Assembly (NCBI GenBank): GCA_051453625.1
Contig: JBOZIK010000001.1
Span: 11,133,067 to 11,168,877 of the forward strand
Direction: 5' to 3'
Length of the DNA stretch: 35,811 nt
Source: Welwitschia mirabilis
Taxonomy: Eukaryota
The position numbers were made by a program, and so were the translations under genes. The notes under the pieces were generated by a model. The model saw nothing but the letters and a program-made list of their open reading frames with translations, had not been told where the DNA came from and did not search any database. Below, piece after piece: positions 5,298-35,811 of this stretch. Positions within the stretch are counted from its first letter, which is position 1, and each line of letters starts with the position of its first letter.

Positions 5298-5320
5298 AAT
5301 TGGGGTTATTGCTAAGCAGG
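5298..5320 (+). promoter_or_regulatory. Degenerate primer binding site (tRNA-Asp type, as in Athila)
   Basis: aattggggttattgctaagcagg directly after the LTR end resembles Athila TGGCGCCGTTGCCGGGG after deamination. Confidence 0.6.
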
Positions 5321-6894: not shown

Positions 6895-6970
6895 ACAATT
6901 TTCATCCTAATAACTTTCAGCTAAATAGCTTTCATTCTAATAATTTTTAGCCTCATAACTTTCAACCCAA
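6895..6970 (+). repeat. 15-bp minisatellite encoding (Q/H)PNNF-like pentapeptides, copy 1
   Basis: NNFHPNNFQLNSFHSNNF*PHNFQPN. Confidence 0.8.
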
Positions 6971-7257
6971 CTCCCTTAGATATTTAATGAAAGAAATGAA
7001 AAATATGTAATAAAATACCAATAAAAATTTAGAAAATATGATTGGGATCTTTTAATAAACCATCTTAGGAAACCAAAGACTCAAGGATTCCTTGCAATCC
7101 AAACCCTTCCCAACCCCAATGATGTTAAACACAATTGGAAGATAGTGACAAGAAGTTGACATGGTATGACTTCCAATGAAGCAACCTCCACTTCTCATAA
7201 CTAGGAAGATCTAGACCATGATGATAACATAGAAATTATTTATCAACATATCTTTCT

Positions 7258-7357
7258 NNNNNNNNNNNNNNNNNNNNNNNNNNNNNNNNNNNNNNNNNNN
7301 NNNNNNNNNNNNNNNNNNNNNNNNNNNNNNNNNNNNNNNNNNNNNNNNNNNNNNNNN
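7258..7357. other. Assembly gap (100 N)
   Basis: N run; falls between the two gag duplicate blocks. Confidence 1.
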
Positions 7358-7448
7358 AACCCCATACCTTTATCATTAATTAACAATTTCAATAGCAAAA
7401 TATGGAATCAGTTTTTAGATCCTTTTTTGATAATAGATATAGGAGAAA

Positions 7449-7585
7449 TAACTTTAAATCTAATAATTTTTAGTTCAAAATTTTCAACCCAACAAGTTTC
7501 AACCTAATAATTTATAGTCTAATAATTTTCAATCCAAAAAATTTTACTCCAATAATTTTTATCCCAATAACTTTCAATCTTACAA
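7449..7585 (+). repeat. 15-bp minisatellite encoding QPNNF-like pentapeptides, copy 2 (longer)
   Basis: Units such as caacctaataattta, tactccaataatttt, tatcccaataacttt. Confidence 0.8.
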
Positions 7586-8129
7586 CTCTTCTAAGGATTA
7601 TTTCCTTAGAGTCCTTCAAAAAAAAAAAGGAGAAAACCTTATAGGTATATTTTAACAAAACATGCTAGGAAATCAAAGACCTAATTCTTCCTTATAACTC
7701 AAACCATTCTAATTCAAAATGATATTAAAAATAATTAAAAGATAGTATTAAAAAGTAGACAACTCCCAATGAAAAAGCCCCACTTCTTACAATCAAAAAG
7801 ATCTAAACCATCATGATGACATAGAAGTTCTTGATCAACCTAGCCTTTCTTTATCTCATAAAGAAAAATCCAATCATAGCATAACCAATGAGAACATGAG
7901 AAATAAACCAACTCCTTCTTGGTTAGAAAGACTAAAGAGTAATCCCACCTATTATGATTACCTTAAGGCAAGTATGCAAGATGTGAGTATCAACCTATCT
8001 TTCTAGAAAATACTGTAAGATAATCATAGATACAACAAAGTCTAAAAGGATTTAGTCAAGAGAAAATAGAAAAAAACCATACCAAGTAGGGTGTTCATTG
8101 CTAATCCCTTTCTAATTTACTAGCATAAA

Positions 8130-8540
8130 AATATCCAAAATTCAAAGATGAAGGGGGTGCATAGTTAGTGTTATCTTAGCAAGAAGTAAAAAAGTTAAGA
8201 AAGCATTAATAGACATAGGAGCTAATATCAACATTATATCATTTCACATCTACAAAACATTTGGACTAGAAAATAAGATTAAATCAATAAAAATTGTGTT
8301 GGAACCAGTTGATGCAACACTTAGAAAACCAATTTAAGTCATCAAAGATCTAGTCATATAAATTGAAGAGGCCTTTTACAATAAATATGTGGTTATTATT
8401 AATGTAGAACATAAGAAAGAATTCCATTACTCTTAGAAAGAGATTTTTATGCAACAGCCTATTGCATTATTGACACACAAACAAGAATGATGGAATGTCA
8501 AGTAGGAAATAAGAAATTCATTATTAGAGTCTTTGATGTG
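8130..8540 (+). pseudogene. Aspartic protease domain (Gypsy pol)
   Basis: KALIDIGANINIISFHIYKTFGL (cf. ALCDLGASINLMP.SIY..LGL). Confidence 0.85.
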
Positions 8541-8839
8541 GATGAAAGAGATATGGGAGAAAATTTTAATCTTAAACAACAAATAAACCCATAATGCTTA
8601 TCCAACATCATCCTTTATAAGAAAGCATTCTCACTTTACATAACCCCACTTTATTCAATGATCTTGAAGAATGTGAAGAAATCTTAAGAAGCCTTAATTC
8701 CTCGAATTCATGTAATTAATAATTACCTCTTAAGTAATAACTTGAATGAGAAAATAAATGAAAACTTTAAAAACAATATAAAACCTTCTATGTCAAGATA
8801 GGATTTTAACAATAATAATGGATAATTTTGATTTAGAAC

Positions 8840-10260
8840 CTAAAAGAACTACCAAATGGACTGAAATACATCTTTTTCAATAATGACCTTCAGAAACACT
8901 TTATCATTAATGCATGTCTTCATCCTTTCTCAAGAAGAATCATTACTTCAACTTCTCAAATCCAAAACACATTATTTTACTTAGACTCATAAGGATATTT
9001 TAGTCATTCCTTCTTCCATTGTTCAACATAAAGTTTATCTGGAAGATAATGTTAAGCCCACTAGCTAACCATAAAGGAGATTTAACCCTACTCTTAAGCA
9101 AGTAGTAAAGGAATAAAACATCATATTTATAGACATAGAAATCATTTATGCCATTTATGATAGTGAATGGATTAGATCTATTACAATAGCACCAAAAAAA
9201 GATAGAAAGTGATGAGTTTTCATTAATTTTATAAAGGTTAATGATGTCATCCAAAAAAACTATTATCCCTTACCATTTCTAGATCAAATTATTGATAGGA
9301 TTTAAGGCCATTCATATTATTGAATTCTTGATGAATATAGTGGTTACAATCAAGTACGCATAGCCAATAAAAATCAAGTCAAGACAACTTTCACCTCTCT
9401 TTTTGACACATTTTCCTTTAGAAGAATGTCCTTTAGTTTATGTCATGCATCCAAAACCTTTTATAGTGCTATGATTGGTATATTTTTAGATATGATTAAG
9501 GAATCAATAAAAATCTTCATAAATGAGTTTTTAATTTTTGGAGATTCTTTTCAGTAAACTTTAGAAAGATTAGAAAAAGTCCTTAACTGATGCATAAAAA
9601 ATGGCCTTCATTTGAGTTAGGAAGGGGATGGGATATTCTTAGGTCATCATATTTTTAGCAATGGTATTCAAATGGATCTTACTAAAATAGACATCATTAG
9701 AAACCTTCCTCCTCCAACCAATGTAAAACAAGTCAGCCTTTTCTTGATCATGCTGGTTTTTATTAAAGATTCATTAAAGATCATGTTAACTTGTAAACCT
9801 ATTCATTCTCTCTTAGAAAAAGATATCGAATTTTCTTGGAATAAGTCTTGTCAACATGCCTTTGAAAATATTAAAGACAAAATCACTTAAACACCAATTA
9901 TACGAGGACATGATTGGAATAAAGATTTTGAACTTGTATGAGATGTAAGCAATATCGCTGCAGGAGATGCGTTAGGATAAAAACATCAAAAAGATTACAA
10001 TGTTATTTGTTATATCAATCAAATCCTTTCAAGAGCTCAAATTAATTATACCACTACTGAAAAATAAATGATTGCCATCATCTTTTATCTTAATAAACTT
10101 TGATACTATCTTCTTGGTTTTTAACTAATGTCTATATTAATCACACTACCATTTGATATCTCATGACCAAGAAGGATTCTTATGGAAGACTTATTAGATG
10201 GATATTATTAATGTAAGAATTTAACCTAACCATCATTGATAAAGAAGGGAAACATAATTG
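8840..10260 (+). pseudogene. Reverse transcriptase + RNase H (Gypsy pol), degenerate
   Basis: YYPLPFLDQIIDRI*GHSYY*ILDEYSGYNQV...KTTFTSLFDTFSFRRMSFSLCHA; catalytic FMDDF decayed to FINEF; RNase H motifs FELV*DVSNIAAG and AQINYTTTEK. Confidence 0.92.
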
Positions 10261-10539
10261 TACTACTAATCATTTATCTAGAATCCCTCATGAAAAACAT
10301 CCCTTACATTTTTCTCTGTACCTTTCTATCTAAGATAATTTTCCAAATGAACAAATCTTCGCCATTATACATTTTTATTCCATCTGATCTAAACATCCTA
10401 CCCCTTGATATGTTGATATTGTTAACTATTTTGTTACTCTGAAAACCCCTAAACATTGGACTTACAATCAGAGAAAAACTTTTCTTCATAGAATAGGAGA
10501 TAAGTGGCATGAACCTTATCTTTACTAAAGATGTAAAAG

Positions 10540-11545
10540 TCAAATCATGCACAAATGTGTGCTAGACTAGAAGTAATATGATATCCTTACTCTTTGTCAT
10601 CATAAAGTATGTGGAGGTTATTTTAATGGCCAAAAGACTTCTATGAAAATCTTTCATGCAAACTTCTATTAGCCTATCCTCTTCAAAGATTTATTTAACT
10701 TTAAAGAAAATATTATGCTTGTAAATGTTTTGGTAGTATTTCCAGATCTTAAGACATGCCTCTCCAACCTATCTTAGAGTGTTATCCTTTTGATTATTGG
10801 GGCATAGATTTCATAGACCCTCTTACACCATCTTCTTATAATAAAAATGACATCCTAGTGGCCATGGCTTATCTGACCAAATGGGTAAAAGTCATTCCTA
10901 TAATCATAAATGATATCAAAACAATGTGTTCTTTTCTTAGATCTAATATTTTCCATGGATATAACTTTCTTAGAATCTTGATTAGTGACAAAGGCACTCA
11001 CTTTATAAATAAGATTCTTAGAAAACTTATCCTCTCTATTAGAATTAAGCATAGAATAGTAAATGCTTATCATCTTCAAACTAATGGTACTTTGATCTTA
11101 TTGTACTACTTATCATCACTTGGTTTTTTTCCTTATGAACTTGTGTATGGTAAAGCCTTTGTTCTTCCCATTGATGTGTGCTATAATTCTTATAAAACCA
11201 TCCATCAACTTAATGTTATAGATTTTTATGATAATATACAGCATACACTAGTCCAACTTCAACATCTTGATGAGAAACACAATCATGCTATTCATAAACA
11301 ACTCATCAAAAACCTTAAGAAAAATTTTACCATGACAAAAAGCTTATCTCTACATCTTTTCAACTAATTAGTTGGTTCTATTATTTAATACTTAACTACA
11401 TATTATTCATGATAAATTGGCTTTTAAATGTCTAGGTCGTTAATGAATAGAGGAAGTACATATTAATGACATTATTGAGATTTTTAATTTAAACACTCAT
11501 GAAATGTTCAAAGGAAATGGACAATGGTTGAAGTTATATAAATCA
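10540..11545 (+). pseudogene. Integrase (Gypsy pol), degenerate, with internal deletion
   Basis: CHHKVCGGYFNGQKT zinc-finger region; MPLQPILECYPFDYWGIDF; ILISDKGTHF; YHLQTNG; PYELVYGKA; FKGNGQWLKLY (cf. FKVNGQRLKHY). Confidence 0.92.
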
Positions 11546-12986
11546 CCTGATGATTGTCATTATACCATGGATATGATTGAAGAAATTGAATTAAATGATC
11601 CCCTTACTCAAGAGAAACATCTTTGCTTTACCATTATCTAAATAGTTTCTTAGCTAGATTCTTTGATTGATTTATTTACTATTTGATCATTTATTAATTT
11701 GGATATGCATTAGATTTCCTATAAGTTTTCATAAAAGTAATTTTTTACTTTAGGAGTGTAGAATGATAAAGATTGGATTTTAGTTAATCTAGGACATTCC
11801 AATGTCTATGAACTTCAATGTCTATGATAGCTTCTGCTTAAGTACTAATTACGTCAAATCAGATACTAATTTACAACTTTATACATAGTTAATTTATTAC
11901 TTCACTGATCAATCAAGATTTTCAAAAAAGGAAATCATAGCCTATTCTTTTAAGGAAAAAGAATCTTTGAATTAAAATGACATACAGAAAAAATGAATTT
12001 TCTAAATAAATTCCATGATGTCCTACTATAAGCATACTAGGATAATTTTTTTTGAAAGGGACCTTTCATAGTATGATATGGTAACTGTAGAAACTTCGTT
12101 AAAGAGTTAGTTGACCATGATTTAATCTCAGCTTATGAGTCCTTACTCTTTTGGTAGTGGTTTCACTTCCTTCATCATAATGGATGATGTTTCTTAACAC
12201 TTGATTGACTTAATTTCTATAACTCTGAAGCCATATCTCAAGGGCATGATAGAACATATTGATCATTGAATGATATATCAGCCAAAGTTTATTATTTCTT
12301 TAGCAAATGATTAGATTAATTTTTAGTCCTAATATTATATTAATACCTTGCAAAAGAATCATTTGACATTGCTAAAATCATACTCCCTATCACATGAAGC
12401 TTATTATGGTTTAGAACTAAATGATGCATCTTTACTATCAAGTAGTTTTACGATGAAAACCATTAAGTATGATTAGGTGAATATTCAGGGTAAACAATTA
12501 ATCTTCTTCATATGCCTTTTTGTCCATTTATATTTTGCATCTTCTTAACTATTTTTTGGAAGTGTTAAATCCATTACTACATTTTACTCTCATCTTAATA
12601 AGATGTCTATATTTTTAGCTTGTCATCAGCCTTCTCTTACCCATATGCTTTCTTTCATCTTTGACCCTCAGTTTCATTTCCATATTATTTTTTTCTTTTC
12701 ATTTTCTAGTTGTGTTTTCCGATTTTGTTTTTCCTTTCTTATTTTACATCTATTGCTCCTTTTATCTTGTTCTTTTTTATCATCATAAGTAAACTTACTT
12801 AAAATTTAGGACAAATTTATCTTTTTCATAGATGTAAAATAATAGTTGTAGGAATATCTTTTTAATATGCAATCTTTGTTTACCAACATAAGATATTTTA
12901 TGCTTGAGTGTTATGTTTTATCCTTTTTCTAAATTGGCTCGCTTCTGTCCTTTTTTGCTTTCTTTGTTAGGGACTGACAAATGCCT

Positions 12987-12998
12987 AGTGGAGGGCTA
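12987..12998 (+). promoter_or_regulatory. Polypurine tract
   Basis: agtggagggcta abutting the 3' LTR, preceded by ttgttagggactgacaa, similar to the Athila pre-PPT motif. Confidence 0.65.
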
Positions 12999-13674
12999 TA
13001 TTGTAAGTCTAATTGGTCATATTTAACATCATGTTAAGAGTAATTTTCAGGCATATTTAATAGTTTTTCAAGCTAAATAGGAAGAATATGAAGCTTAATA
13101 AAGATGATCACATAGAACACCAAATTTAGAGATAATAAGCCCTTTTTTGGACATATTTCACACTTCCTAAATTTTTTAGAGAATGATGAATCTAGTGTAG
13201 GATGATGGATGATGATTTGGATGCTAGAGGAAGAAGAAAAGGATATTATCCACCTCATCACCTAGATGATAATCATGTGGAAAATAATCAAAATCAATAA
13301 ATAAAGAAACTAGGATTCTACTGACAGTTGTCCACCATGTCATCCGAATGACACTTGAGAGTATGATAGTTATTGAAGCACCTAAATCAGATTTGAAGAT
13401 GTACCTGGAACATAACAGTGTATACCATCAAAATTAACTCCTCTGGAAGATGCACAGACATGCTAATTAGCTCAAAAGCCATGATCAAATTAAGGAGAAC
13501 ATCGATCTTAGTTAATTTACTTGCAAAAGGTGAAGAAAGATTAATTTCAATAGGAGAAAGCTTAATATGGTAAGAGGGAAGCCAATTCTGACATAAATAA
13601 GTAGAAAATACTAAAGATTATTTGTCATCCATCTCGTCTTCTAGACGAGATTAATAGAATCAAAAGAAATAAAA

Positions 13675-14257
13675 NNNNNNNNNNNNNNNNNNNNNNNNNN
13701 NNNNNNNNNNNNNNNNNNNNNNNNNNNNNNNNNNNNNNNNNNNNNNNNNNNNNNNNNNNNNNNNNNNNNNNNNNNNNNNNNNNNNNNNNNNNNNNNNNNN
13801 NNNNNNNNNNNNNNNNNNNNNNNNNNNNNNNNNNNNNNNNNNNNNNNNNNNNNNNNNNNNNNNNNNNNNNNNNNNNNNNNNNNNNNNNNNNNNNNNNNNN
13901 NNNNNNNNNNNNNNNNNNNNNNNNNNNNNNNNNNNNNNNNNNNNNNNNNNNNNNNNNNNNNNNNNNNNNNNNNNNNNNNNNNNNNNNNNNNNNNNNNNNN
14001 NNNNNNNNNNNNNNNNNNNNNNNNNNNNNNNNNNNNNNNNNNNNNNNNNNNNNNNNNNNNNNNNNNNNNNNNNNNNNNNNNNNNNNNNNNNNNNNNNNNN
14101 NNNNNNNNNNNNNNNNNNNNNNNNNNNNNNNNNNNNNNNNNNNNNNNNNNNNNNNNNNNNNNNNNNNNNNNNNNNNNNNNNNNNNNNNNNNNNNNNNNNN
14201 NNNNNNNNNNNNNNNNNNNNNNNNNNNNNNNNNNNNNNNNNNNNNNNNNNNNNNNNN
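13675..14257. other. Assembly gap with identical 50-bp flank overlap
   Basis: 13625-13674 is repeated at 14258-14307. Confidence 0.95.
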
Positions 14258-14591
14258 TCATCCATCTCGTCTTCTAGACGAGATTAATAGAATCAAAAGA
14301 AATAAAACTTATAATTTCACTACTGATAGTCATCCACCTGTTTGTCTGAACAATACCTAGGATGGTACCTCATCTATGAAACTCAAATGTCATCAAGAAG
14401 GCCTATGGATGATCAGAAGCCATTAGAAGAAGAGAATAACCATCATCCACCATGTCGTCTGGACGATATCCAAGTGAACAATAGCTATAAAGAACAAAAA
14501 ATGAATACCATCAATTATGAAATCATTGTTATGATAACCTCTAGTCTATTACAACTCTTTAGCAACCCTAATAGTCATCCCAAATCCATGA

Positions 14592-14673
14592 ATACCCCAC
14601 TAAGTCCCTCATTTCTCATCTTTGGTGTATCGATACCCCACTAAGTCCCTCATTTCTCATCTTTGGTGCATCG
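14592..14673 (+). repeat. 41-bp tandem duplication (2 copies, 1 mismatch)
   Basis: ataccccactaagtccctcatttctcatctttggtg(t/c)atcg x2; single copy in the 5' LTR (~4308-4350). Confidence 0.95.
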
Positions 14674-16439
14674 ATTGGTCTTGGGACGATTTTGGAGATT
14701 GATTAAGTAAGGGATCCATCCTAGTTGTAGAGAAGGGTTAATTAATAAAGTTATTGATTGAAGTGTTCTTGTTAAATTACTTTCTGATCTTCATTATAGT
14801 TTACGTTAATTACATTTAAATGATAGATATTTCTAATTAATATAGATTATGAGGGCTAACTTGGGTAACAACAAGTTAGTGCACTTGATTGGGATTTGCA
14901 TTTAGATTTGCATCCATCATTGCATCTTGCACTCGTTGCATCATTGCATTTTAATTCTAAAGTAAGATTAGGAAATCAATTTAGTTTTATTCTTTTTTAT
15001 TCAAGCAATCTTCTAAATTCCTCTTTAGAATTCCTCTCTAAAGTATGACATTTAGGTTAAATCCTATATGCTCGTGTGTTTTATGCGAGTTTATTGAGAT
15101 TTATAGGTATTAAAGATAAATAATTCATTGGAAGAAAATATAAGATTGATTACACAATTCGCATAATAACACCCATTGAAACAAAATTCCCAAATTACTT
15201 ATTCCCTTCATATACTTTAAAACTTTATAATTAAATTTTGATAATTCTATTTTGATTTATAAATCTATCCTGGTAATATTCCAACAACATGAAAAATATT
15301 AAAATAAGTATTAATGATATATATAAGGTTTATAATCAAATTTTATTATAAATATTTATTTTCATCTAGTAATTCTTCATCAATAGTTAGCTCAATGTTT
15401 TATTTCATTAGGGTAAATACTAATTTTTTATTATCCATGACAAGTTTATTTAACATCTTACCTATGTCATTTAACTAATTAAAGAAAATATAGTTATTTA
15501 TTTGACCTAGTTTCACATCAAAATAGTATTTCATGAATTCCAAATCCATGATGTTGAACTATTTACAAGCTATTTCATCACTTTTACAATATTCTCTTGA
15601 TTGTTTTTACTAATCAAAATATCATCTAAAGATATAATAAGATATGTCCCCTCACATTTTACATACTCACGTATCTCAAAATCCATTATCACTGAGATTT
15701 TTTAGCTTAACGAATCCTATACATGGCTCTTAATTACTTTAAATCATGGAGTGACTTATTTAGTTTACATGCCTTATCACTTTTATTCCTTTACCTTTAA
15801 ACCTTTAATTTGTGCCACATAAATCTCTTTCTTAAACTACTTACTCAAAAATGTTGTCTTTAGGTTGAGCTAATACATCTTTTATCCTCTATAATGTTAA
15901 TGCATCCAAGGTTCTAATGGTTTATTGTTTTTTTTATTAGTGTATAAAATTTGTGTAGTTAACTTCTGCTTCTAAGAAAATGTTTTTCAAGCAATTTGAT
16001 CTTACATTTATTAAGTATTCCATCAAAATTATTGCAAAATGTTTATTGGTTTTTTACAAATTTAATTTTCCTAAAAGTGAGTTCACTAGTTTTAAAGTTA
16101 TGTTTTATGCTTCATACTTATGGCATGTATCCACTATGAATAATTTACTAATCCTTTGAATGTTGTTAATTCATTGGCATAAGTGAGATGAAATTCTGAA
16201 GGATTAGTTTCAATTTTAGGTTTTTTCATCCTTGCATACCTTTTTCTTTCTTTTTCGTTTTTTGAATAAGTTAAAATTTAGTTCTATGATGGCTAATGCA
16301 CTACTAATTAAAACATATTTACTTATTGGTAAATTAGAACATAATTCTTCAAAGGAAAAAAAGGATAACATGCTTCATGACATCCTTTACATATAAGAAT
16401 AGCCTTAACAATTTGTGACTCATAAGCAAGCAGATGATT

Positions 16440-17427: not shown

Positions 17428-17848
17428 ATATTTCTCACCACTACCGAGGTTTGAACTTTGGACGTCTGGGTCCATTTGTCTATGACCTTACCACTATAGC
17501 AAACAATCATTGACTTATTTGAAGAGATAGCGGGGAGGTAATTTTGTGCAATACAAATGTCGAGTGGCACTTTGGGTTTATAGAATCTATTTTGTTTGGA
17601 TTCCTTACTAATAGTTAGTAGGTAATTTTATGTTACACAAATGTCCAGTGGTACTTGGGCTTATGGAATCTATTCTATTTGTATTCCCTACTAATAGCGT
17701 GTAGGTAAGTTTATGCCACACAAATTCCTAGTGGCACATAGGTTAAGGAATCTATTCTATTTGTATTTCCCACCACTGTTGGGGTTTGAACTTTGGACCT
17801 CTGGTTTCATGTATCTATGACCTTACCACTCTGGTAAGTAGTCATTGA
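17428..17848 (-). mobile_element. Composite tRNA-derived SINE-like element: two Pol III heads flanking three ~83-bp repeats
   Basis: Minus strand tcaatgactacttaccagagtggtaagg (A box)...gaggtccaaagttcaaacccc (B box) at 17848-17770, and a second similar head at 17513-17430. Repeat units at ~17527-17610, 17611-17693 and 17694-17775. Confidence 0.7.
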
Positions 17849-18968
17849 TAAATTTTATTGTTACTAAGTACATGAATTAAAAGGCTTTAATTTCATGATG
17901 ATAGCAACATATGAAAAACTCAAGGTAACTAGCAAAGGTAAGATCTGTTTTATTGAAAGAAGATTTTAAGGTTCATGAGTGTTTTGAACAACCCTTTCTC
18001 TAGAGCAAAAAGTAGTAGTATAAGGTTTAAACTATTTTACATGTACGATTTGAAGTTTTCATATTTTTGTTATTATAAAGAAGCAAATCAAAATTTCTAC
18101 TATGTGTAAAATAAAATATTAAATTAGATGTTTGTTAAGATTACACTAAACATAAAATTAAAAAAAATGTTAATATCTATTAATGTTATAATATCAAAAA
18201 TTTTCTCTCTCAACTTTAACATCCCTTAAGATGGCACTGCTAAAACTAGGTTTTCAACTTTGATGCATGTTAGAGTTACAATATGAAATTTGCTCCTTTG
18301 ATTCTCATCCTTCAAATTTCACTTCCTCAACTTGATTCTTGTCATAGTTGCACCATTGTACCTATCACAACATGAAAAATTGCTAATGTAAAATTAAGTT
18401 ACTTTTAATAAATAATAATCACTATAGTGATAGTAGGTAATTACCATTATGATTTACTTTTAGATATGATAAGGCATGAAATATTTCAAGAGATAACATG
18501 ACATGGAAAAACTAGAAATATAAGTTATTGATCAAAATAAAACTCTAATTTGATCAAAATTGAAAAAGTAGTAAATAAAAGAACCATGACTTTGAAAAAT
18601 TTTAAAAATAATGAGATTTACTTAATTTTTTAAAATAAAAATAAGAATATATCAAACTAGAAAATTTACATTGGGGAGGGGGGCGTGGGAGAAAGGAGTA
18701 GGAGTGAAAATGCCCTAGCATAATGGAAGGAATTAAACTATTTGACAAAAAGGAGAATATTCTACAGGATACTCAAAGAAAGACTGAAAACAAAACAAAA
18801 TTGGGGGTGTTGGTTCCCTTGGGTAGAATAACTAGTAGAAGCTAAAACTAAACTAGGAAAGCAACCTGAAAGAAAAGGAAAATTTAAAAAGGGAGACAGG
18901 AACATCCTAATTAGGTGTGAAGAAGAAAATTGAATAACAAGAAGGGGAACATTCTGCAGAAAACGTAG

Positions 18969-19837
18969 NNNNNNNNNNNNNNNNNNNNNNNNNNNNNNNN
19001 NNNNNNNNNNNNNNNNNNNNNNNNNNNNNNNNNNNNNNNNNNNNNNNNNNNNNNNNNNNNNNNNNNNNNNNNNNNNNNNNNNNNNNNNNNNNNNNNNNNN
19101 NNNNNNNNNNNNNNNNNNNNNNNNNNNNNNNNNNNNNNNNNNNNNNNNNNNNNNNNNNNNNNNNNNNNNNNNNNNNNNNNNNNNNNNNNNNNNNNNNNNN
19201 NNNNNNNNNNNNNNNNNNNNNNNNNNNNNNNNNNNNNNNNNNNNNNNNNNNNNNNNNNNNNNNNNNNNNNNNNNNNNNNNNNNNNNNNNNNNNNNNNNNN
19301 NNNNNNNNNNNNNNNNNNNNNNNNNNNNNNNNNNNNNNNNNNNNNNNNNNNNNNNNNNNNNNNNNNNNNNNNNNNNNNNNNNNNNNNNNNNNNNNNNNNN
19401 NNNNNNNNNNNNNNNNNNNNNNNNNNNNNNNNNNNNNNNNNNNNNNNNNNNNNNNNNNNNNNNNNNNNNNNNNNNNNNNNNNNNNNNNNNNNNNNNNNNN
19501 NNNNNNNNNNNNNNNNNNNNNNNNNNNNNNNNNNNNNNNNNNNNNNNNNNNNNNNNNNNNNNNNNNNNNNNNNNNNNNNNNNNNNNNNNNNNNNNNNNNN
19601 NNNNNNNNNNNNNNNNNNNNNNNNNNNNNNNNNNNNNNNNNNNNNNNNNNNNNNNNNNNNNNNNNNNNNNNNNNNNNNNNNNNNNNNNNNNNNNNNNNNN
19701 NNNNNNNNNNNNNNNNNNNNNNNNNNNNNNNNNNNNNNNNNNNNNNNNNNNNNNNNNNNNNNNNNNNNNNNNNNNNNNNNNNNNNNNNNNNNNNNNNNNN
19801 NNNNNNNNNNNNNNNNNNNNNNNNNNNNNNNNNNNNN
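18969..19837. other. Assembly gap in the LINE 3' UTR
   Basis: N run; aaacgtag occurs on both sides. Confidence 1.
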
Positions 19838-19990
19838 AAACGTAGGGACATACTATAAAAAGGGCAAAATTGGGACCAAAAGAGCCCCTTAAGAAATGAA
19901 CTAACAAAAAACTGAATCTAAACTAAGTAAAAAACTTGAAAGGATAAGCGACTAGTATCCCATATATAGGGGAAAGAGATTGTCATGATT

Positions 19991-20173
19991 ATGCTCTAGT
20001 AAAAAGCGTCCCATTTCGTCAGATAACACCTTAAAGGCCTAATTAACCTTCTTAAATTATTTAGCTCCTATTTCATTCTTGTCTGGGTGTAGTCTAAGTG
20101 ATTTCTTCCTATAGCTTGACTTGATTGCTTATGGTAAGACTTCATGAGACATTCCCAGGGTTACAAATGAGTA
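19991..20173 (-). other. DnaJ/Hsp40 J-domain coding segment (HPD at 20089-20081)
   Basis: YSFVTLGMSHEVLP*AIKSSYRKKSLRLHPDKNEIGAK*FKKVN*AFKVLSDEMGRFLLEH matches the J-domain consensus YYxxLGv...IKkAYRklal.yHPDKN....F..i..AyevLSD...R across its whole length. The three stops are TAA/TAG. Confidence 0.92.
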
Positions 20174-21113
20174 TCTCTTTAGCTCATGAATTGTGGCAAG
20201 CATAAACTCCCTTTTCGTAGTTTCCATGTCTATGTCTTCCTAAGAATTATGTTGGCTCACTTCTGATGTAAAATTTATAGTCAACCCTTAGATGGAACTA
20301 GGACTCCTCTTCGGCGAGGTATCCCCTTAAGCCTGGCCAAGGGGTTGCTCCCTTTGCTCTTAGGATTTAGTTGGAAAATTCTCCTGAACTGTCTCTTCCT
20401 GCATTAGAGGTGAATTCGGCTTTTCTATATGAGGTTTTGGGGATGGAATTATCTTTTTCTAAGAGCTGGGATTTCCCTATTCAACATTCCCCTCAAAGTG
20501 ATACGCTTCATCTGTGGTTGCTTTCCTCTTGGACTTTCTTTTAGAAGGAGTCTCCTAAAGGTGTCGCTAGGGGGAGAAGGGGTCTCTCACATCCTAATCT
20601 CACTGGCTGCTTTCTAAAGCATCATGATTAATCTGGAGTATCTTACAATGTCTTTTCAACATAATGCTAGAAAGAAGAAGAAAGGTAGGTTAACATGGTA
20701 TCCTAGATCTAGGGCTTTAAGAAATGCAAAGTGAATGCCTGAAAGATTTAAGTAGCAACTAGATTGAATGAAGTATCGACCTATTAATTTGGCACCCAAG
20801 CCCTAAGGGGCTAATGTACCCACTAGGCAACTTAGGAACACCACTAAGAAAGAAATGGAGTGCCTCTCATTATCCTTTACTTCTAAGAGGAATTCTTTCA
20901 CCAGCTGCCAGAATTTTTAAAAGTCTAGAAAGAGAGTCTTTAGTGATTTTGATGGATATTGTCCTAAAGGTGGTATGCTACCCTCTTCATCTTCTGTAGA
21001 ATGGGATAATATCGACCCTTGGTTCTCCCTTGAGTTTGTGCAGGAGGGTTCCCCATCCCACAGCTTACACCTTATCCCACAACTTAGAGCATCCTTTGAA
21101 CAGGTCAGGATCA

Positions 21114-21213
21114 NNNNNNNNNNNNNNNNNNNNNNNNNNNNNNNNNNNNNNNNNNNNNNNNNNNNNNNNNNNNNNNNNNNNNNNNNNNNNNNNNNNNNNN
21201 NNNNNNNNNNNNN
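21114..21213. other. Assembly gap (100 N) with 93-bp flank overlap
   Basis: 21021-21113 is repeated at 21214-21306 with one mismatch. Confidence 0.95.
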
Positions 21214-21337
21214 GGTTCTCCCTTGAGTTTGTGCAGGAGGGTTCCCCATCCCACAGCTTGCACCTTATCCCACAACTTAGAGCATCCTTTGAACAGGTCA
21301 GGATCAGATGATTCAATAGTAGGAGTTGCTCCCATAG

Positions 21338-24300
21338 CTATGCTAATTTGGAAATGATATCATTTGATTATCTTAATTATATTTATTAGAAATAAAAGGG
21401 GGTGTTATTAAAAATCAAATCATTTTTTGTACGCCAAATCTGCCAATAAGTCAAGAAAGTCCTATCATTCATGTATGTGTCAGATGCATTATAGAGATTT
21501 CAGTAACTCATAATTATCATTAAATCATCACTCCATTTGCATTGATAAAAAAGGTGATTAGCATAGTCAGGACAAGCATGGCAGATTAGATAAGTAGTTT
21601 TAACTTAGAAGCCCCTCTTGTGCAGTTAGTTTCTTATGAGAATTTTGTTATTATCCTTCAACCAGAAAAAGACTTTAATTTTATCTAGAATTTGGCCCTT
21701 CCAGAATTTCTTATTAGTGTCATCTTTTCCATTTTTTTTTTTTGAAGAATCTTCTTGGTTGTATCTTTATGGTAAATGTTTAAGTCTATCAGATATCTGT
21801 TATCTCTACATAGTTATTTTATTAGATAAGATTCTCCCTGAACGGTGTTCCAATTAGGGTATTTAGAACTAATTAAGCCACTCCATAGCTGTTCTCCCTT
21901 GAACAGCCTTTTCAGAATCCGGTGAGCTCCTGTAAGGAGATAATCCTCTGGTCTCTAAATACTCCAACCTCTAGAGTCCTTTCGTCGAGCTATTGTCTTC
22001 CATTTGCATAGATGAATGCAATTTTGATCTTCACCTCCCAACTAAATAAATTCCTTTAGAATTCCATTGATTTTTTGAATGACATTCTTTTAGAAAGCAG
22101 CGGGGCGGCGGGGGACGCGGGGGGAGGGTGGGGGGGGGAATGGTTGGGAGGGGGAAAGGGGGCGATAACAAAATCTATGTATCTAAAAGAAGAGATTAGA
22201 CATGAGTTTGTTAAGATAATCTTTTCTTTAGAGGAGAGGAAGTTATTCTATCAAGATTTAAGAATATAGTTCCAAGTGAGGGTCTTATGCTAATTCCGTA
22301 ATGGGATTCCCAGGTAGATGTCTGGAAGGTATCCTAATTTGATGTTGAAACGTCTAGTGATTTCATCCCCGCCAATGCGATTTCTACCCAAGGGATGAAT
22401 TTTGGCTTTACTCCACTTAGTGTGGAGACCTGTAGCTTCTACAAAAAAGTTCATGGAATTCTTAATTGCTCTTTCTTGTTGACATAAGACCTTGGTCATG
22501 ATGATAGTGTCATCTGTATAATGGTTATTAATGAATGTTTGACCTCTTATCTTGATACCAGAAACTCCATTAGTTTTAAAAAACCCCTGTAAGATGTTTA
22601 TGACAAATAGGAAAAGATATAGGCATAGATGGCCTTCCTGTTTTAATTCTTTACCAACTAAGAAAAATTTAGAATTGTGGTCATTAACCTTCACACTAAA
22701 TTCAACTGAAGCTTGCATGTATAGCTAAAGGTTTATGATCTCTTGGTGAAATCTAGTATTTGTAAGAATACAACCTAAAGCTAGCTAGCTAATAGAGTTA
22801 TAAGCTTTTGTTATGCCTAATTTAGCAATAAGAAGAGAAAATTTATGCTTTTTAACAAAATTTATAATTTCATGAGTCAAGAGGATTTGGTCCTAGATAT
22901 ATCTAGATAGGATGAAGTCGACTTCATTTTCAGAGATCACCTTGAGTAGCAAGAGGGGTAATACTACCTACCCTGAATTTCACAAAGATTCTATAAATAA
23001 CTTTGCAAATATTTAAAGGTCTAAAGTCTTTCAGTTTATTGGCATCCCCTTTTTTTGGAAACAAGAATGATCCTAGTTCTATTCATTTCCATGGGAATGC
23101 ATTTGTTGTGAAGAATATCTTGCATGACATGTTGAAGGTTGTGCCCCAAGATAGAGAAGTAAGATTTGAAAAGTTCAACTTGCCACCCATCTGGTCCTAG
23201 AGCTCCATTATTCTTCATTGACCTAATAGCTAACAGGACTCCATCTCTGCCCAGGGGTTTAGTGAGTTGGGTATTATTCTTATTGGAGATTCTCTTATTT
23301 TTTGAAATAAGATCAGGGGTGATATCATCCCTTTCCGAGATTCTTTTGAGATGAACCTACATTTCATTAGATATTTCTTGTTCATTTTCACTTATGTGGT
23401 CTCTAGTGATAAGCCTCTTGATCCTATTATCAGCTTTATGCTAATTAGCTTGCTGAAAGAAAAACCTGATGTGTTTGTCCCCCTTCTTAAGCCACTTAAT
23501 CCTTGATTATTTTCTCTAATAGTTTTCCTCATTAGCATATATCTCTTGGAGTTTGATGAGGCATTGATATTCCTTGTCATAGAGGCTGTCTTGGTCTCCT
23601 CCCTCTTCCTACTTAGTTTGGATTCTTTAGATCTCTTTTTCAAGGTCATTTTTGAATTTAAATCTTTCTTTGTTTTTCCTCGTCCAGTCCTTTATATGGG
23701 CTTGTAAGGTGTTAAGACCTCTGTAGAGGAAAGTTTATGGATGAGTATCATCATACTGACTTCAAATTTTTTATTAGAGTTCTGGGGTTTCTATCCTAGT
23801 AATCTAGTAACGTTCCATGCAAAATGGAATCCTCCAGGGTATTATCGCGCCAATTCTGTATTTGATTGGATGGTGATCCGAAGCTATCTAATTCAGTCCA
23901 TAGGCTTCGATTGAGAGCTTTACTAAGTTATTTTCTATGAGAATTCTGTCAATTTTAGACATTATCAGATTGCTTATCCTTCTATAAGACCAGGTGTATT
24001 TACACCAAGCAAGTGTAACATCTACAAGGGCATTCTATGCCATGAAGTCTTTAAGAATTGAAGCCCCTTTGGAATTCCAGTTTTCATCCCTTAATTTCTC
24101 CCAACGATGTAGGCATTGATTAAAGTCTCCCACTATGAGCCACTTGGATTTCCCTATCGCAATCTACTGTAATTCCCCTAATGTGGAAGCTTTATCTTGA
24201 TTATTTTAAGGACTATAGATGTTAGTTATAGTTCAGCCTTATTCCTTAAGAAAAATAGTTAGGTGGTTCTTGCTACTTTTAAGTAAGTCTGCCTCCTTAT

Positions 24301-24511
24301 TTGTGATAATCATGAGGCCTTCTGAGTTTCTTTAAGATGCAAAGATAAAAGTATTCCACTACTACTATAGATTCTTTAGTTTCATTCCATCCCTCATTTT
24401 TGTTTCTTGTAAACAAACTAATTTAATATTAAAATGGTTGATAAGATTTCTTAGGGTCTTTTTCTTGCAGGAGGACCCTAATCCCCTATAGTTCTAAGAG
24501 AGACAATCCAT
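21338..24511 (-). pseudogene. LINE ORF2 (APE endonuclease, RT, C-terminal zinc-binding region)
   Basis: MDCLS*NYRGLG...LVCLQETK; WLIVGDFN; SDHHPI; ALGPDG; DFRPL; HYTDDTII; YLGIPL; HLFYQC; YWQIWRTKNDLIFNN. No RNase H domain seen. Confidence 0.92.
22097..22164 (+). repeat. G-rich low-complexity tract (potential G-quadruplex) interrupting LINE ORF2
   Basis: gcagcggggcggcgggggacgcggggggagggtgggggggggaatggttgggagggggaaagggggcg. Confidence 0.85.
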
Positions 24512-25602
24512 TAGGTCTGTTTTTGCCTTTTTTTGGAAGCTTAACCTTTTTTTAGAGTATCTTCGATGGTATCTTGGGAGCTACTGGCCACATTCTCTAT
24601 AGTTTCCCTTTCTCAGAGGGTTCTGCTACTAGGTTTTTCTCTCATTTGAACTTTCACATCATTCGACTCTTCTATGTTTGATGGATTTTGAGGTTGATAA
24701 GTGTCCCCTTCTTCCATAAGAGGTTGGAAGGAGTTGTACTTCCTCTCTTGTTCCTTCTTCTCTTTGCTTTCCTTGGTTTCCTTGGGGAAAATCATAGTGC
24801 TCTTCACCACTTTTTCCTTCTTCTGTTTATGCTGATAGATGCTCTGATTTTGTTCAGTTTTTTGACAAAAAGAATAGATTTCTTTTCGTTTTTCTTCAAT
24901 ATCAATTAACTGTTTTCCACATTCTTCCCTTATATGGCCCATTCTCCCACAATGAGAACATCTCTTTTCTGTAAAAAGGCATGTTCCTGAGATGTGTCCT
25001 TATTTTTCATAAATTTTAAATGGAACCAGGAGGTTCTTATAGGTAACTTTAAGATCACATATGCCCCATTTGGATCTGAACTTTACAGATTGTATCTCCT
25101 TTGTGTCTTCTAAGCTCATCCAAATGTAAAATCTAGCAAGGACTAACCTTGTCTATTTAATGGTTATTATATCAAGCTTAATCAGTTCACCAAACTGGGA
25201 TGTGATTTTCCTTAGGAGCTCTTCATCCCAAAACTCTAAAGGGAACTTGTGGATGTGGATTCATATTGACAGTTTCCTGAAAAGATTCGGGTCCATTTAG
25301 CTAGGGTGAGTCCCCTCACTCTAGAAAGCCAAGGTCCTCTCGCTATGATCTCATCCCAATCTCATTCATTGTCCAACTAAAAAAGCACTAATCCTTCTAG
25401 CATAATAACTTCAACTTTACTAACTCCTGTCCATTTTGTTGTTACTCATTCTCTCATAAGATCAAGCCTTAGGTATTGGATTGGATGAAACGAACTCACC
25501 GATTAAACTGTATTGGAGTTTCTTCTCTGTCTTCAAGCAAGCACTTTCATTAATATCTAAGACTAGGATTTTTCCTTTCCTAGAGATCTAGGTCTTCTCC
25601 AT
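24511..25602 (-). pseudogene. LINE ORF1 (DUF4283-type region plus CCHC zinc knuckles)
   Basis: MEKT*ISRKGKILVLDINESACLKTEKKLQYSLIGEF; IIARGPW; IHIHKFPLEFWDEELLRKITSQFGELIKLD; CSHCGRMGHIREEC preceded by a decayed second knuckle (GHISGTC); ends SKKRQKQT*. Confidence 0.85.
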
Positions 25603-27349
25603 TTTGGGGAACAAGCCCCTCTTTAAACCCTAAATTAAATCAATGTAGCGGTAACAACGAAATTTCATAACTTACCCGAAGAGTGTCTGTCTGGTGGCCA
25701 ATATCACCCCTTGCACACTGTAACTTCCCAAAATAGAACTACCCCACAAATTCGAAGTCTTCCAAACCCTAGCTCCCTCCTGTGCTCCAGATTCGCCGAC
25801 TGCAATCCAAAATCATTTGACATAGGTGTAATTTCGAGATTTACTAGATTAAAAAAATACATTTTATACTCCTTTTAATTACATTTCCATCCTTCTTTCT
25901 CCTTTAATACTCTGGAGATTGATCAATAGAAATCTTGATGTATGAAATTGAGATTTACTTAAAAAACCATTGAATATGCTATAAGAAGTTATAAACATAA
26001 GTTATGAACAATATAAAATTTATAAAATCTATATAGTTCAATATGTAAATGAGTATTATAGATTGGATATTCTTTAATAATAGACGATATAATACCATTT
26101 TAAATGATGTTAGGTTTCCATGAAATGAGTATATTTTTTTTTTTCTCCCTTAAAAAGGATTTTCATAGTTAGATACATTCAACTATGCATAATAAGAAGA
26201 GATATTGAATTTAAAAGTTTTAATGTACATACCTACCCTTAGAAGCACAACCACCATGAATATTCAAATGAATAATGTAATTATGTCTAGTGCCTCATAG
26301 TGTACAGAGTGACACATTGAAAGATTCTAACTTTCCACCTATTAAATAAAGAACAAGTGTTCCACTTGGGTTACCATCTTAGTTGCATGTTATTATTATT
26401 GTTTCATTAAATAAATGATTATAATTATCATTACACATACATACAATTCTAAGAATGCTTTGCAATTACTAAATATCTTCTATCATCTATTATTTGAGGA
26501 TATCCAACTTCTAACACAAGATGAAATCATTCCATGGATATCAATGCTCATTGACAATTGCCATAAAATTGCAAACTCAATAATAAACAATAATAATATC
26601 ATTAATCAATTACAATAATATGATTACTCGTTATGATAACAACTTGCAGAAAATTAAAAATCGTCTAGAGAATGATGCACAACCTCATGCAACCATTAAA
26701 GAAGCACGAAAGAAAATGCGAGAATCTTTAGAGAAAGAAAGGAAGTGGAAACTAGAAACATTAAATAAGTCAGAAGCCAAATAAATTATGCTACTTACCA
26801 TCCACTGCATAATTCAAGGGATAAAAACCTATCTTATGATGCATTGTACATTTTTTGCCCATGAATCAATGTGTATTAATATGTATGTTTTAGTTTATAA
26901 ATTTTACAAATACCACTTTCATAAGATCCAAAAATGTCTAAAAACAGTATTATGAAACCAGTTTAAGCTATGTCATCTAACAACATACTTTAGAAGATTT
27001 TAGATGTCTAAAGGAGAAATGTAACAATGAAATCTAATTTTGCATCCTAAGTTTTTCACAATGTCATCTAACATTATACCTCTCATAGTATCTTAAGTTT
27101 GCCAAAGAAAATATTAGTGCTACTCTTCTATGTTAGGCAATTTTCTTCCTTTATAGCTACAAGCAAAAATAATAGTTCTTTTAAAAATGTGAATACAAAT
27201 TGAAGCTTCTAAGGAAAAAGGGGGATAAAACAATTTATGGAATGATTATTGGGGGTGTTGAACTTGAAACATTTAATCACCCAAACAAATGATTTAGTTA
27301 CACTCAGACCTTATAGTTCTGAAATTATTATCGTCTCATTGAACCCTGA

Positions 27350-32253: not shown

Positions 32254-34032
32254 TATTCTTTGCTATAATTATATTTATCAAATATATGGAGACATGTCAT
32301 TTGTAACCATCTCCGAGGCCATCCAAGATATATGAAGAAGTTTCTTTAGAAAACTTAAAAAAAATGGTGCTAGATCTGTTTTATCTATCATATCATCATA
32401 GCTATAACTTTCTCATATAAAATACTTTTAAGAAGCTGCAAAATGTTTGGAATCCTTGTTTAACGAAAAAGCACTCAGAAATCTTTTCCTTTGGAGGTCA
32501 TTGAATAAGGGAGACAGGCCAAACTTTTTGTCAAAACCATTTTATCAGCATATCCTTTATACTCTTTTGATGTAGGTCTAATATCATTTAGGCTTGCTAG
32601 TTTAGAGTTTGGAATACAAAACTATTAAGTTCCACATCTTATGTATATATCACAGCTCACTTATCATACAATTGTTTGTTTTGAGCATTTTGTTAAAGCA
32701 AGAGCTGCTTTAAAATTTAAATAATCAGAAGTTAAAGAGAAAGTTTACTAAAACTCATGCGCCACACTTATATCTTACTTAGAAATGCTCTTTCTCCTGT
32801 TTGAATACATGAAAATCCTTAAAACTAATGAAAACTTCATGTTGTTCTAGGCTTGTTGCCTTCCTGAGTCTATCATCAAGTTTGTTGATTTTTGCTCAGT
32901 TTGGGTGGTGACTCTAAGTTTGATGAGCAAAATGAGTTTGCTACTATGGTTGTAACAGAAGGATGGAAAGATAAGATTCTGTTAATATTTTAGAACTTCT
33001 TTATATCAACATATGAAAAATGGTTTATGGTCAAAGATAGATGAATCAATGTGATAATTTTTAGGAGATAGGGTATCAGATTCCTATCTAGATAACTTGA
33101 AAATCCAACTAGAAAGAAATGTATTTGCACCTGCAGAAAGTATAGAACCAAAGAAAATGGGACCTTTGATAGGTTCTTCCCAGAGTCTTTTTGATTGATT
33201 ATTCTCTTACTTAGGCCAAAGGATTTCTGGCTATTCCTTTTACTTGCGTATAATGAAATTGAATTCTTGTCTTTATGTATAGAAGTTGTTTCTTTGTTTC
33301 TATGGTTCAAGTTATGTAATAATCTTACATTTCATACAAGACGTAGTTTGTACATTATCAAATTTTGTCCTGCATGACAGCACTTTCTATTGAATAGAAA
33401 GACACATATTTTTTAATTTCATACCACTGTTCTGTTTCTTGTTTTCTTGAGTATTAGGCTAAAAAGAATTTTAATTTGTTTCCCTCATTCTCTTTCCTTT
33501 ATGAGTGCATACATCCAACAAATTTGGTCCTCAGTGCTATGTTCAAATTATTTTGGCTACTTTTGGTTGCTACTCAATTTACATGACAACCTTTTCATTA
33601 CAGCATAATGTCTGTTAATTCTGTTTTGTGTACTGCCAGTGGCTTATTGGTGGATATGGTGCTTTCAAGTTATTATCTGCACATTGCAATTATTCCTTTG
33701 TTCAAAGCTCTTTATTATGTCGCCTCCGATCTTCTTGAGGAGAAGGCAATTGATTACTAAAAAGGAAATTCTCCATTATTGCTTTAATTTTTAGTTTACT
33801 TGTCCATACATTAAAAGTTGCGTTTTTTGATTTATTAAAGGTTTCTCTTACTGGGATGCTCTGGTTATCCAAAAAGAGATATCAGCTATAAACTTTCACA
33901 GCTGTGTGTCATCTTCCATTAAACAGTTCATACATGAATCAAGACTCTTATGTTTGTATCATCTAGAACCAATACCTGATTAAAATTTCAGAACTAGTAA
34001 CCATCTCACAATGAAAGAAATATTAATCTTTC

Positions 34033-34763: not shown

Positions 34764-35811
34764 AAAATGTAATCAATAGAAATAATATACTGCAGGATCA
34801 AGGATGGCCTGTGTTTTAAGTGTACAACTCTTCCTCCTTTAGATTTATTTTGTCTTTTGGATTGCTCTTGGGACAAACTCAGCAAAATATTGTTTATGAT
34901 ATAATGCTTATTCATATTGTTTTAATTCTTTTATTTTTTTCCCCTTGCATTTAATGCTCAAAATTTTCATGGTCAATGAACTGCTTTTGCCCCATGAGGT
35001 AGAAAGCCATATTGGCTCCCAAATAACATGTCTGGAAACAGAGCAGTCCTGTATTAATATCAGCCAAGAAGGCTACACAAGCATTAGCCACTAGGCAGTG
35101 CATGGCAACTCTTTCATGTAGAGTAGCAGGCAAGAATTTAGAATATTAACATAACCTCATAGAAACTATGCAGAGCAAACTATTTCACTTGTAAAGAAGG
35201 TATGTTTTGTTCTTTAGGAATGTTAGATATTAGAACACTAATGGTAGTATTTGACCAAATTCACTTCCCTAGCAATGGTGATGTAGCATTTCTTATTTAC
35301 TTCATGTGCTACGATTATTTGCTTCAGCATCATATCAATTTATATACGTGAATGTGAAATTCATCAGTATTCTATATTATGTGAAGTCTGAACCATACTT
35401 GTCAGATTAAGACCTGTCACCAAACTCAGAAGGCAGTCTGGACTGGGACTCACCATTCAAACTAGGCAAAACTTGGCACACTCGGTGCAAACTCGGGAAG
35501 GCCAAAAGAGTTTCGAATAACATGCATTTTCATTAGTTTTAAGGATTTTTATGTATTTAAACAGGACAAGGAGTATTTTGAAGTAAAATATAAATGTTGT
35601 GTAATCCAAAATCATAATTAACGCGTGATAAACACATTCACCAGTTTCAGTAATTGTTGTCTTCAGCTGTTGATTGTCTAAACTTTGAAGTATCAAGTGC
35701 TTTAATAAAATACTCAAAACAAGCATAAATCTTTTGTAGGACACAGTTTTGACCTAAATGCGTAGTAAGGCCCAAAACCTTCACAAGGATCTTTTAATGA
35801 CTCAACAGTAA

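Follow-up and report, generated by a model that had tools for sequence, protein, structure and literature searches.

Most descriptions of long interspersed nuclear elements (LINEs) give one or two open reading frames (ORFs); according to passages of PMC5203782, extras such as primate ORF0 are rare and attract notice, and DUF4283 is the dominant ORF1 domain of plant L1 elements. The extra L1 ORFs that are named in these passages are ORF0 and reverse ORFs, not an ORF3 at the 3' end. Accessory ORFs also occur in plant long terminal repeat (LTR) retrotransposons. Passages of PMC11728184 report PF20167, described there as a relative of Athila ORF1, within a 3' accessory ORF of an Athila element from sunflower. 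Here we describe a 35,811-nucleotide (nt) stretch of Welwitschia mirabilis DNA (NCBI GenBank assembly GCA_051453625.1, contig JBOZIK010000001.1, positions 11,133,067 to 11,168,877 of the forward strand; referred to below as the window), the minus strand of which carries the remains of an L1-type LINE with a third frame, ORF3, directly behind ORF2.

We conclude that ORF3 is probably an integral third cistron of an L1-type LINE family that is seen here as one dead, deamination-decayed copy. As part of the same reading, the ORF3 of the family was probably ~396 codons long and began with an ATG located 2 nt (at most ~50 nt) after the end of ORF2. Its sequence suggests a layout in which an N-terminal domain restricted to the lineage is joined through a charged linker to a J-domain at the C terminus. 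The observations behind this conclusion are the anatomy of the element, the frame of both ends of ORF3, a high summed contig depth that runs on from that of the LINE, and a candidate target-site duplication that encloses the entire unit.

An L1-type LINE on the minus strand

The window is AT-rich (~32% G+C) and contains five N gaps. Pfam scans covered positions 19900-25400 on the minus strand and 5298-12998 on the plus strand. Since DUF4283, Exo_endo_phos, RVT_1, and zf-RVT lie in order on the minus strand, positions 25602-21338 represent, by their domain content, a decayed plant LINE of the L1 type. The ORF1 domain, DUF4283 (PF14111), matched with an E value of 1.9e-6 (28.0 bits versus a cut-off of 27.2), and a CCHC knuckle with the string CSHCGRMGHIREEC was found at 24960-24919. 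Within ORF2, the AP-type endonuclease scored above its cut-off (Exo_endo_phos, E value of 2e-10, 41.3 bits versus 24.5), the reverse transcriptase (RT) scored slightly below its own (RVT_1, E value of 2.9e-6, 27.6 bits versus 29.6), and zf-RVT matched with an E value of 5.9e-10; no Pfam match to RNase H (RVT_3) was obtained behind zf-RVT. Both ORF1 and ORF2 are broken by numerous stops and frame changes. When the window was compared with itself by BLAST, neither ORF3 nor the LINE was found to recur, the only repeat of this region being a 93-nt overlap described below.

The junction between ORF2 and ORF3

Direct reading of the minus strand gives an ORF2-frame TAG at 21340-21338, the spacer ct, and an ATG at 21335-21333 that opens the peptide MGATPT. 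This TAG-ct-ATG arrangement, with the ATG at 21335 on the same strand as ORF2, had been proposed in the initial annotation, which was correct on this point. No A-tail, untranslated region (UTR), or terminal sequence was observed between the ORF2 tail and the ORF3 ATG by direct reading. The same annotation had ORF2 end at this TAG, with part of the tail elided. Although the TAG is real, the elision concealed 4 in-frame stops, such that the 2-nt spacing is uncertain: the codon read-out of the tail is ...TYWQIWRTKNDLIFNNTPFYF, two stops, I, one stop, LR, one stop, SNDIISKLA, and the final TAG (21340-21338). Upstream of this TAG, the tail thus comprises YWQIWRTKNDLIFNNTPFYF, a TAA TAA doublet (21388-21383), 3 further codons with 2 more TAA among them, and SNDIISKLA. 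Because these 4 stops fall within the 17 codons that precede the final TAG, the working ORF2 stop may be either the TAG 2 nt before the ATG or the TAA doublet ~45-50 nt before it. The spacing may, as the initial annotation held, reflect translational coupling of ORF2 and ORF3. A bacterial promoter and terminator scan of the junction was set aside as meaningless for a eukaryote.

With a tail this full of stops, ORF2 may really have ended elsewhere than in the present copy, and plant L1 ORF2 proteins are known to acquire additional domains at the C terminus, RNase H among them (passages of PMC5203782). The N-terminal domain and J-domain attributed to ORF3 could accordingly be C-terminal domains of one long ORF2 protein, with the stop and the ATG arising as products of decay. 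We consider this very improbable, given that the ORF2 and ORF3 frames differ where they meet, that the pair of TAA codons at 21388-21383 already terminates ORF2, and that the transcript-derived homologue introduced in the next section starts at the same Met with no upstream run-on.

ORF3 is decayed, with both of its ends in one frame

ORF3 extends over 10 + 386 = 396 codons, from the ATG at 21335 to a TAG at 19954-19952, after removal of a 100-N gap (21114-21213) and the overlap around it. The gap is flanked by 93-nt duplicates (21021-21113 and 21214-21306; 99% identical), which are overlapping contig ends. The initial estimate of ~395 codons was therefore close. The frame is, however, not open: 21 internal stops (9 TAA, 9 TAG, and 3 TGA) were counted among the 386 post-gap codons, and the copy is therefore a pseudogene. 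A single mismatch within the 93-nt pair converts an ORF3 CAA (Q) codon to TAA. A second scaffold gap, of 583 Ns (13675-14257), is likewise flanked by a duplicate, in this case an exact one of 50 nt (13625-13674 and 14258-14307); the duplicates at both gaps are overlapping contig ends rather than signs of missing sequence.

The N-terminal part of ORF3 (read from the codon that starts at 21112) and the J-domain share one frame, even though they lie ~950 nt apart. The frameshift that had been assumed to join the two is therefore not needed.

To identify relatives of the N-terminal part, an exhaustive HMMER search was run against 1.84 billion representative proteins, using the codon-21112 frame over 21112-20251 as the query and excluding the J-domain. 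Exactly one match was obtained, a 91-amino-acid (aa) protein designated P0001 (E value of 2.8e-24), which is a Trinity transcript ORF of Welwitschia mirabilis in EukProt. P0001 starts with MGATPT, i.e., at the same Met as the window ATG at 21335, and 47 of the 80 residues that align with the window are identical (59%). The stops in the N-terminal part of the window copy align with Q, W, and G of P0001. At the level of sequence, P0001 confirms the frame and the start of the N-terminal part.

The motifs that had been highlighted in this region fared unequally. GWGTLLHKLKG and ITKDSLSRLLKI..GE fall within the frame confirmed by P0001, whereas LIGRYF, HFAFL, and VNLPFFFF derive from the +1 frame. 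As a candidate for a PF20167-like second half, the +1 frame yielded no protein relative, and its stretch at 20802-20659 was rejected following a language-model look-up (recognition of 1191, best score of 0.78). Choosing the frame by its number of stops was also rejected: 5 stops fall within 82 codons of the confirmed frame, versus 1 in 81 for the +1 frame, and a higher number is expected in the confirmed frame because Q, W, and R codons decay into stops.

Other searches for relatives were negative. Word-index protein searches for ORF3 scored 0 of 677, 0 of 77, and 0 of 16 candidates, and none of the pattern matches to related loci in viral (0 of 1), prokaryote-genome (0 of 144), and metagenome (0 of 25) contigs was confirmed. 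Pfam hmmscan assigned P0001 to no family at an E value of ≤10, and neither PF20167 nor PF03078 matched the three minus-strand frames of the window at an E value of ≤1. When P0001 was looked up with the language model (recognition of 2745), unnamed clusters of ~90 aa were returned at 0.94; in the best of these, for which alone taxa were recorded, Streptophyta were the commonest. Among named clusters, PF20167 Transposase_32 (0.89; 49% of members carry the family) and ATHILA ORF-1 (0.88) came nearest, both of which fall below the tool's own threshold of 0.9 for more than a lead. The resemblance to these groups, which the initial annotation had suggested, thus gained a lead in the same direction but no Pfam match, and we treat the likeness of the N-terminal domain to PF20167 and ATHILA ORF-1 as a weak lead that falls short of family membership. 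An AlphaFold2 model computed from a 3-row alignment did not reach a quality that would allow searching by fold (mean predicted local distance difference test score of 42.7, predicted template modeling score of 0.29). The middle of ORF3 (20162-20869) had no Pfam match at an E value of ≤1 and no protein relative.

The C-terminal part of ORF3 encodes a J-domain

The J-domain noted in the initial annotation is present, and it is the sole Pfam match in the ORF3 frame (PF00226, E value of 6.5e-11). The match scored 42.6 bits versus a cut-off of 27.8 and covers profile positions 5-58 of 63. The HPD motif lies within LHPDKN at 20092-20075, which aligns with HPDKN of Caenorhabditis elegans dnj-12 and human DNAJA1, the closest solved relatives (E values of 9.4e-11 and 5.2e-8, respectively). 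The helix II/III consensus is retained, 2 of the 3 stops inside the domain align with Q or K of the relatives, and the ORF3 frame terminates 18 codons past the Pfam match. No match to DnaJ_CXXCXGXG or DnaJ_C was detected in any minus-strand frame of 19900-21500 at an E value of ≤1. Judged by its sequence, the J-domain is of the DNAJA/B type.

Since this is the ordinary host sequence type, since every stretch of ORF3 is decayed, and since the sole homologue is a 91-aa ORF, it could be argued that ORF3 was never a working gene. Through 3' transduction or template switching, a LINE subfamily would have acquired a piece of the host or of another element (N-terminal domain plus DnaJ exon) in its 3' region and would have spread it as a noncoding 3' UTR. 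We consider such a passenger unlikely. Its ATG would not be expected directly behind ORF2, nor would the transcript ORF of a copy that is only 59% identical be expected to share this Met; moreover, the two distant domains are still in one frame, and the HPD motif is retained. Further observations that bear on this alternative, namely, the depth of ORF3, the RNA reads, and the duplication around the unit, are considered below.

The decay itself has a recognizable direction. In the contig comparison described in the next section, transitions dominate the differences among family copies, with C>T and G>A prevailing. This excess fits the long-term cytosine deamination that is described for the GC-poor Welwitschia genome in passages of PMC8275611. 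Because C>T and G>A decay is expected to produce stops at such codons, it would account for the window stops that lie at Q, W, or G of P0001 or at Q in the J-domains.

ORF3 was probably carried through the LINE family

We mapped the contigs of two DNA runs (X1 and X3, which carry two organism labels), together with raw reads of two RNA runs (X14 and X17), on positions 19838-25800 at a likeness of at least 80%. In X1, 25,197 contigs mapped, 14,521 of which were <90% alike; in X3, 24,133 mapped, 14,471 of which were <90% alike. Summed contig depth over ORF3 was 317-1711 in X1 and 185-994 in X3, and that over the last kilobase of the LINE was 507-2861 and 361-1507, respectively. The bin that contains the junction (21231-21429) had depths of 1365 (X1) and 771 (X3), with no dip. 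Depth was lower in the ORF3 middle (317-333 in X1 at 20236-20633), was 886 (X1) at 19838-20036, which includes the mapped part of the putative 3' UTR, and still amounted to 1306-2935 (X1) over 25410-25800. At position 21342, a different letter was present in 67 (X1) and 62 (X3) contigs, the best of which extend 86 and 127 letters, respectively, from this position to the contig end. None of the 23 best-supported loose ends listed lies near 21340; those listed from DNA carry only 28-69 contigs.

The match in depth between ORF3 and the 3' part of the LINE implies that the piece would have been carried through the spread of the family, not by one copy, which counts against the passenger explanation. 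The RNA data are in keeping with that explanation: reads from the region were few, and most were <90% alike (183 of 198 in X14 and 87 of 93 in X17) and covered the stretch only in part.

A 14-nt exact direct repeat, TTAAGTAAATCTCA, was found at 25962-25949 and 18625-18612, where it encloses ORF1, ORF2, ORF3, and the putative 3' UTR. If this repeat is a target-site duplication, ORF1, ORF2, ORF3, and the 3' UTR were inserted as one unit of ~7.3 kb, including gaps. Among 300 shuffles, 6 produced a match of at least 14 nt, as did 6 of the 600 region pairs drawn at random from the window. A duplication around the whole unit would be equally expected after 3' transduction.

These data also bear on whether ORF3 simply abuts the LINE at this locus, having come from another repeat such as an Athila-like LTR accessory ORF. 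The nearest named clusters to P0001, PF20167 and ATHILA ORF-1, point toward such a source, a 3' accessory ORF of Athila is reported to carry PF20167 (passages of PMC11728184), and a Ty3/gypsy element is found elsewhere in the window. Nevertheless, we consider a chance neighbor very improbable. No A-tail marks the junction, and LINEs are not usually 3' truncated; a foreign element would not be expected to start exactly at the ATG of its own ORF; the depth is steady, with no loose end at 21340 among the best-supported ones listed; the candidate duplication encloses both the LINE and ORF3; and Pfam detected no LTR, gag, or pol signal in 19900-21500. The original claim that ORF3 is not a chance neighbor is thus supported by the absence of an A-tail or UTR before the ATG, the Met shared with P0001, the even depth, and the candidate 14-nt duplication.

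Several points weigh against our conclusion that ORF3 is a third cistron. The only genomic copy that is legible base by base is dead, with 21 stops in ORF3, and the real stop of ORF2 is ambiguous in this decayed copy. An intact, full-length ORF3 was not found in the word-index searches, and the exhaustive search, run with 21112-20251 and thus short of the J-domain, gave only the 91-aa match. P0001 ends one residue beyond the TAA TGA of the window (20872-20867); the ORF3 of the family may therefore stop at 91 aa, with the J-domain being separate or reached by read-through, or, alternatively, the transcript contig may end there. Summed contig depth cannot be equated with copy number, and some copies may be broken at the junction, given that 7266 loose ends and 998 joints were recorded beyond those listed. 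Chance would produce a match as long as the candidate duplication in ~1-2% of cases, and a 10-nt part of it recurs at 25845-25836. Finally, an 869-N gap lies inside the putative unit, and the depth data extend over 19838-25800.

A possible Hsp70 co-chaperone of the element

If ORF3 is a third cistron, active elements would have made a polycistronic RNA, from which ORF3 could have been translated by reinitiation after ORF2; a shorter transcript might also have served as its template. Mammalian L1 ORF2 is held to be translated by reinitiation. The J-domain, which the element may have captured from a DnaJ gene of class A/B in its host, could then have recruited or stimulated host Hsp70, either at the element ribonucleoprotein or at a host target to which the N-terminal domain binds, and would thereby have aided retrotransposition. 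In its fullest form, this proposal holds that a gnetophyte L1 lineage has a true third cistron that combines a lineage-specific domain, perhaps distantly Athila-accessory-like, with a captured J-domain, providing the element with its own Hsp70 co-chaperone. We put this forward tentatively, as a possibility that falls short of being probable.

If it is correct, a J-protein gene would be known for the first time in a LINE, and for the first time in any plant retroelement; no description of a LINE- or retrotransposon-encoded J-domain was found in the titles and abstracts of the open-access papers and preprints listed in literature searches. In polyomavirus T antigens, a J-domain that belongs to the selfish element itself engages host Hsp70, and the proposed ORF3 protein would parallel them. 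A high-copy plant LINE with an Hsp70-recruiting third gene would represent a new use of host chaperones by retroelements, and it would connect LINEs with the accessory ORFs of plant LTR elements, which are themselves poorly understood.

Features of the element and the rest of the window

The features of the LINE are collected in Table 1.

TABLE 1 Coordinates of the LINE and its ORF3 in the window, ordered 5' to 3' along the element
Feature	Coordinates	Strand	Remarks
Candidate target-site duplication, 5' copy, TTAAGTAAATCTCA	25949..25962	-	After T6 run; TTTT/AA-like endonuclease site
Putative 5' UTR	25603..25948	-	Between candidate duplication and ORF1 Met; contig depth covers it up to 25800
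ORF1 remnant	24613..25602	-	MEKT start at 25602; stop at 24615-24613; DUF4283 ~25290-25129; CCHC knuckle 24960-24919
ORF2 remnant	21338..24511	-	MDCLS start at 24511; endonuclease ~24493-23873; RT ~22946-22395; zf-RVT ~21742-21527
Junction TAG-ct-ATG	21333..21340	-	Direct reading
ORF3 remnant	19952..21335	-	396 codons after removal of gap and 93-nt overlap; terminal TAG 19954-19952
ORF3 N-terminal part, homology-confirmed (91 aa)	20870..21335	-	Spans gap 21114-21213 and duplicate 21214-21306 (= 21021-21113)
ORF3 middle, no assigned domain	20162..20869	-	Second half K/R/P/S/E-rich in confirmed frame
J-domain (DnaJ)	20009..20161	-	Pfam PF00226; HPD kept; three internal stops
Putative 3' UTR	18626..19951	-	Contains 869-N gap 18969-19837; 3' end ...TATTTTAAAAAA
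Candidate target-site duplication, 3' copy	18612..18625	-	Directly behind A6 run; follows ...TATTTTAAAAAA

Between the RT and zf-RVT of ORF2, a G-rich stretch at 22063-22176 reads as a proline-rich peptide on the minus strand. This stretch is hypervariable in the LINE family, since many contigs from other copies skip it by 72-84 nt or carry an unrelated short sequence in its place.

Outside the LINE, an old Ty3/gypsy LTR retrotransposon, unrelated to the ORF3 finding, occupies approximately 3334-15171 of the plus strand. Its direct repeats (3334-5297 and 12999-15171) are 74-85% alike and ~9.7-10.3 kb apart, and an RT_RNaseH_2 match (E value of 2.7e-18) was obtained between them in the plus-strand Pfam scan. 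Inside this element, an array of ~15-nt repeats (TTTCA-rich units) extends over 6867-7597 on both sides of a 100-N gap (7258-7357). An 83-nt tandem repeat (2.9 copies) is located at 17527-17767, with the copies of a 92-nt direct repeat on either side (17429-17520 and 17764-17855; 79% alike). A 71-nt inverted repeat (32764-32834 and 35527-35597; 87% complementary) has its arms 2.7 kb apart, with a 731-N gap between them; these arms are possibly the ends of a DNA transposon.

Comparison with known systems

The window element resembles plant L1-clade LINEs in having the same set and order of ORF1 and ORF2 domains; its A-ended 3' terminus and the 14-nt repeat, a candidate target-site duplication, may be further likenesses. 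It differs from them in carrying a third frame with a J-domain where many plant L1s carry RNase H (passages of PMC5203782). Like the accessory ORFs of Athila-type LTR elements, ORF3 is an accessory frame of obscure function behind the replication genes, and a possible distant likeness of its N-terminal domain to theirs is a lead only (passages of PMC11728184). In contrast to those ORFs, its host element is a LINE, Pfam does not place it in PF20167 or PF03078, and a J-domain is not among the accessory ORF features named in those passages of PMC11728184.

ORF3 shares with class A/B J-domain proteins such as DNAJA1 and dnj-12 a profile match above the cut-off, the HPD motif, and the helix II/III consensus. 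Unlike in these proteins, however, the J-domain of ORF3 is C-terminal, no Pfam zinc-finger or DnaJ C-terminal match accompanies it, and ORF3 belongs to a high-copy repeat rather than to a host gene. The likeness to polyomavirus T antigens would be one of mechanism by analogy only, since the class of element, the position of the J-domain, and the kingdom of the host all differ.

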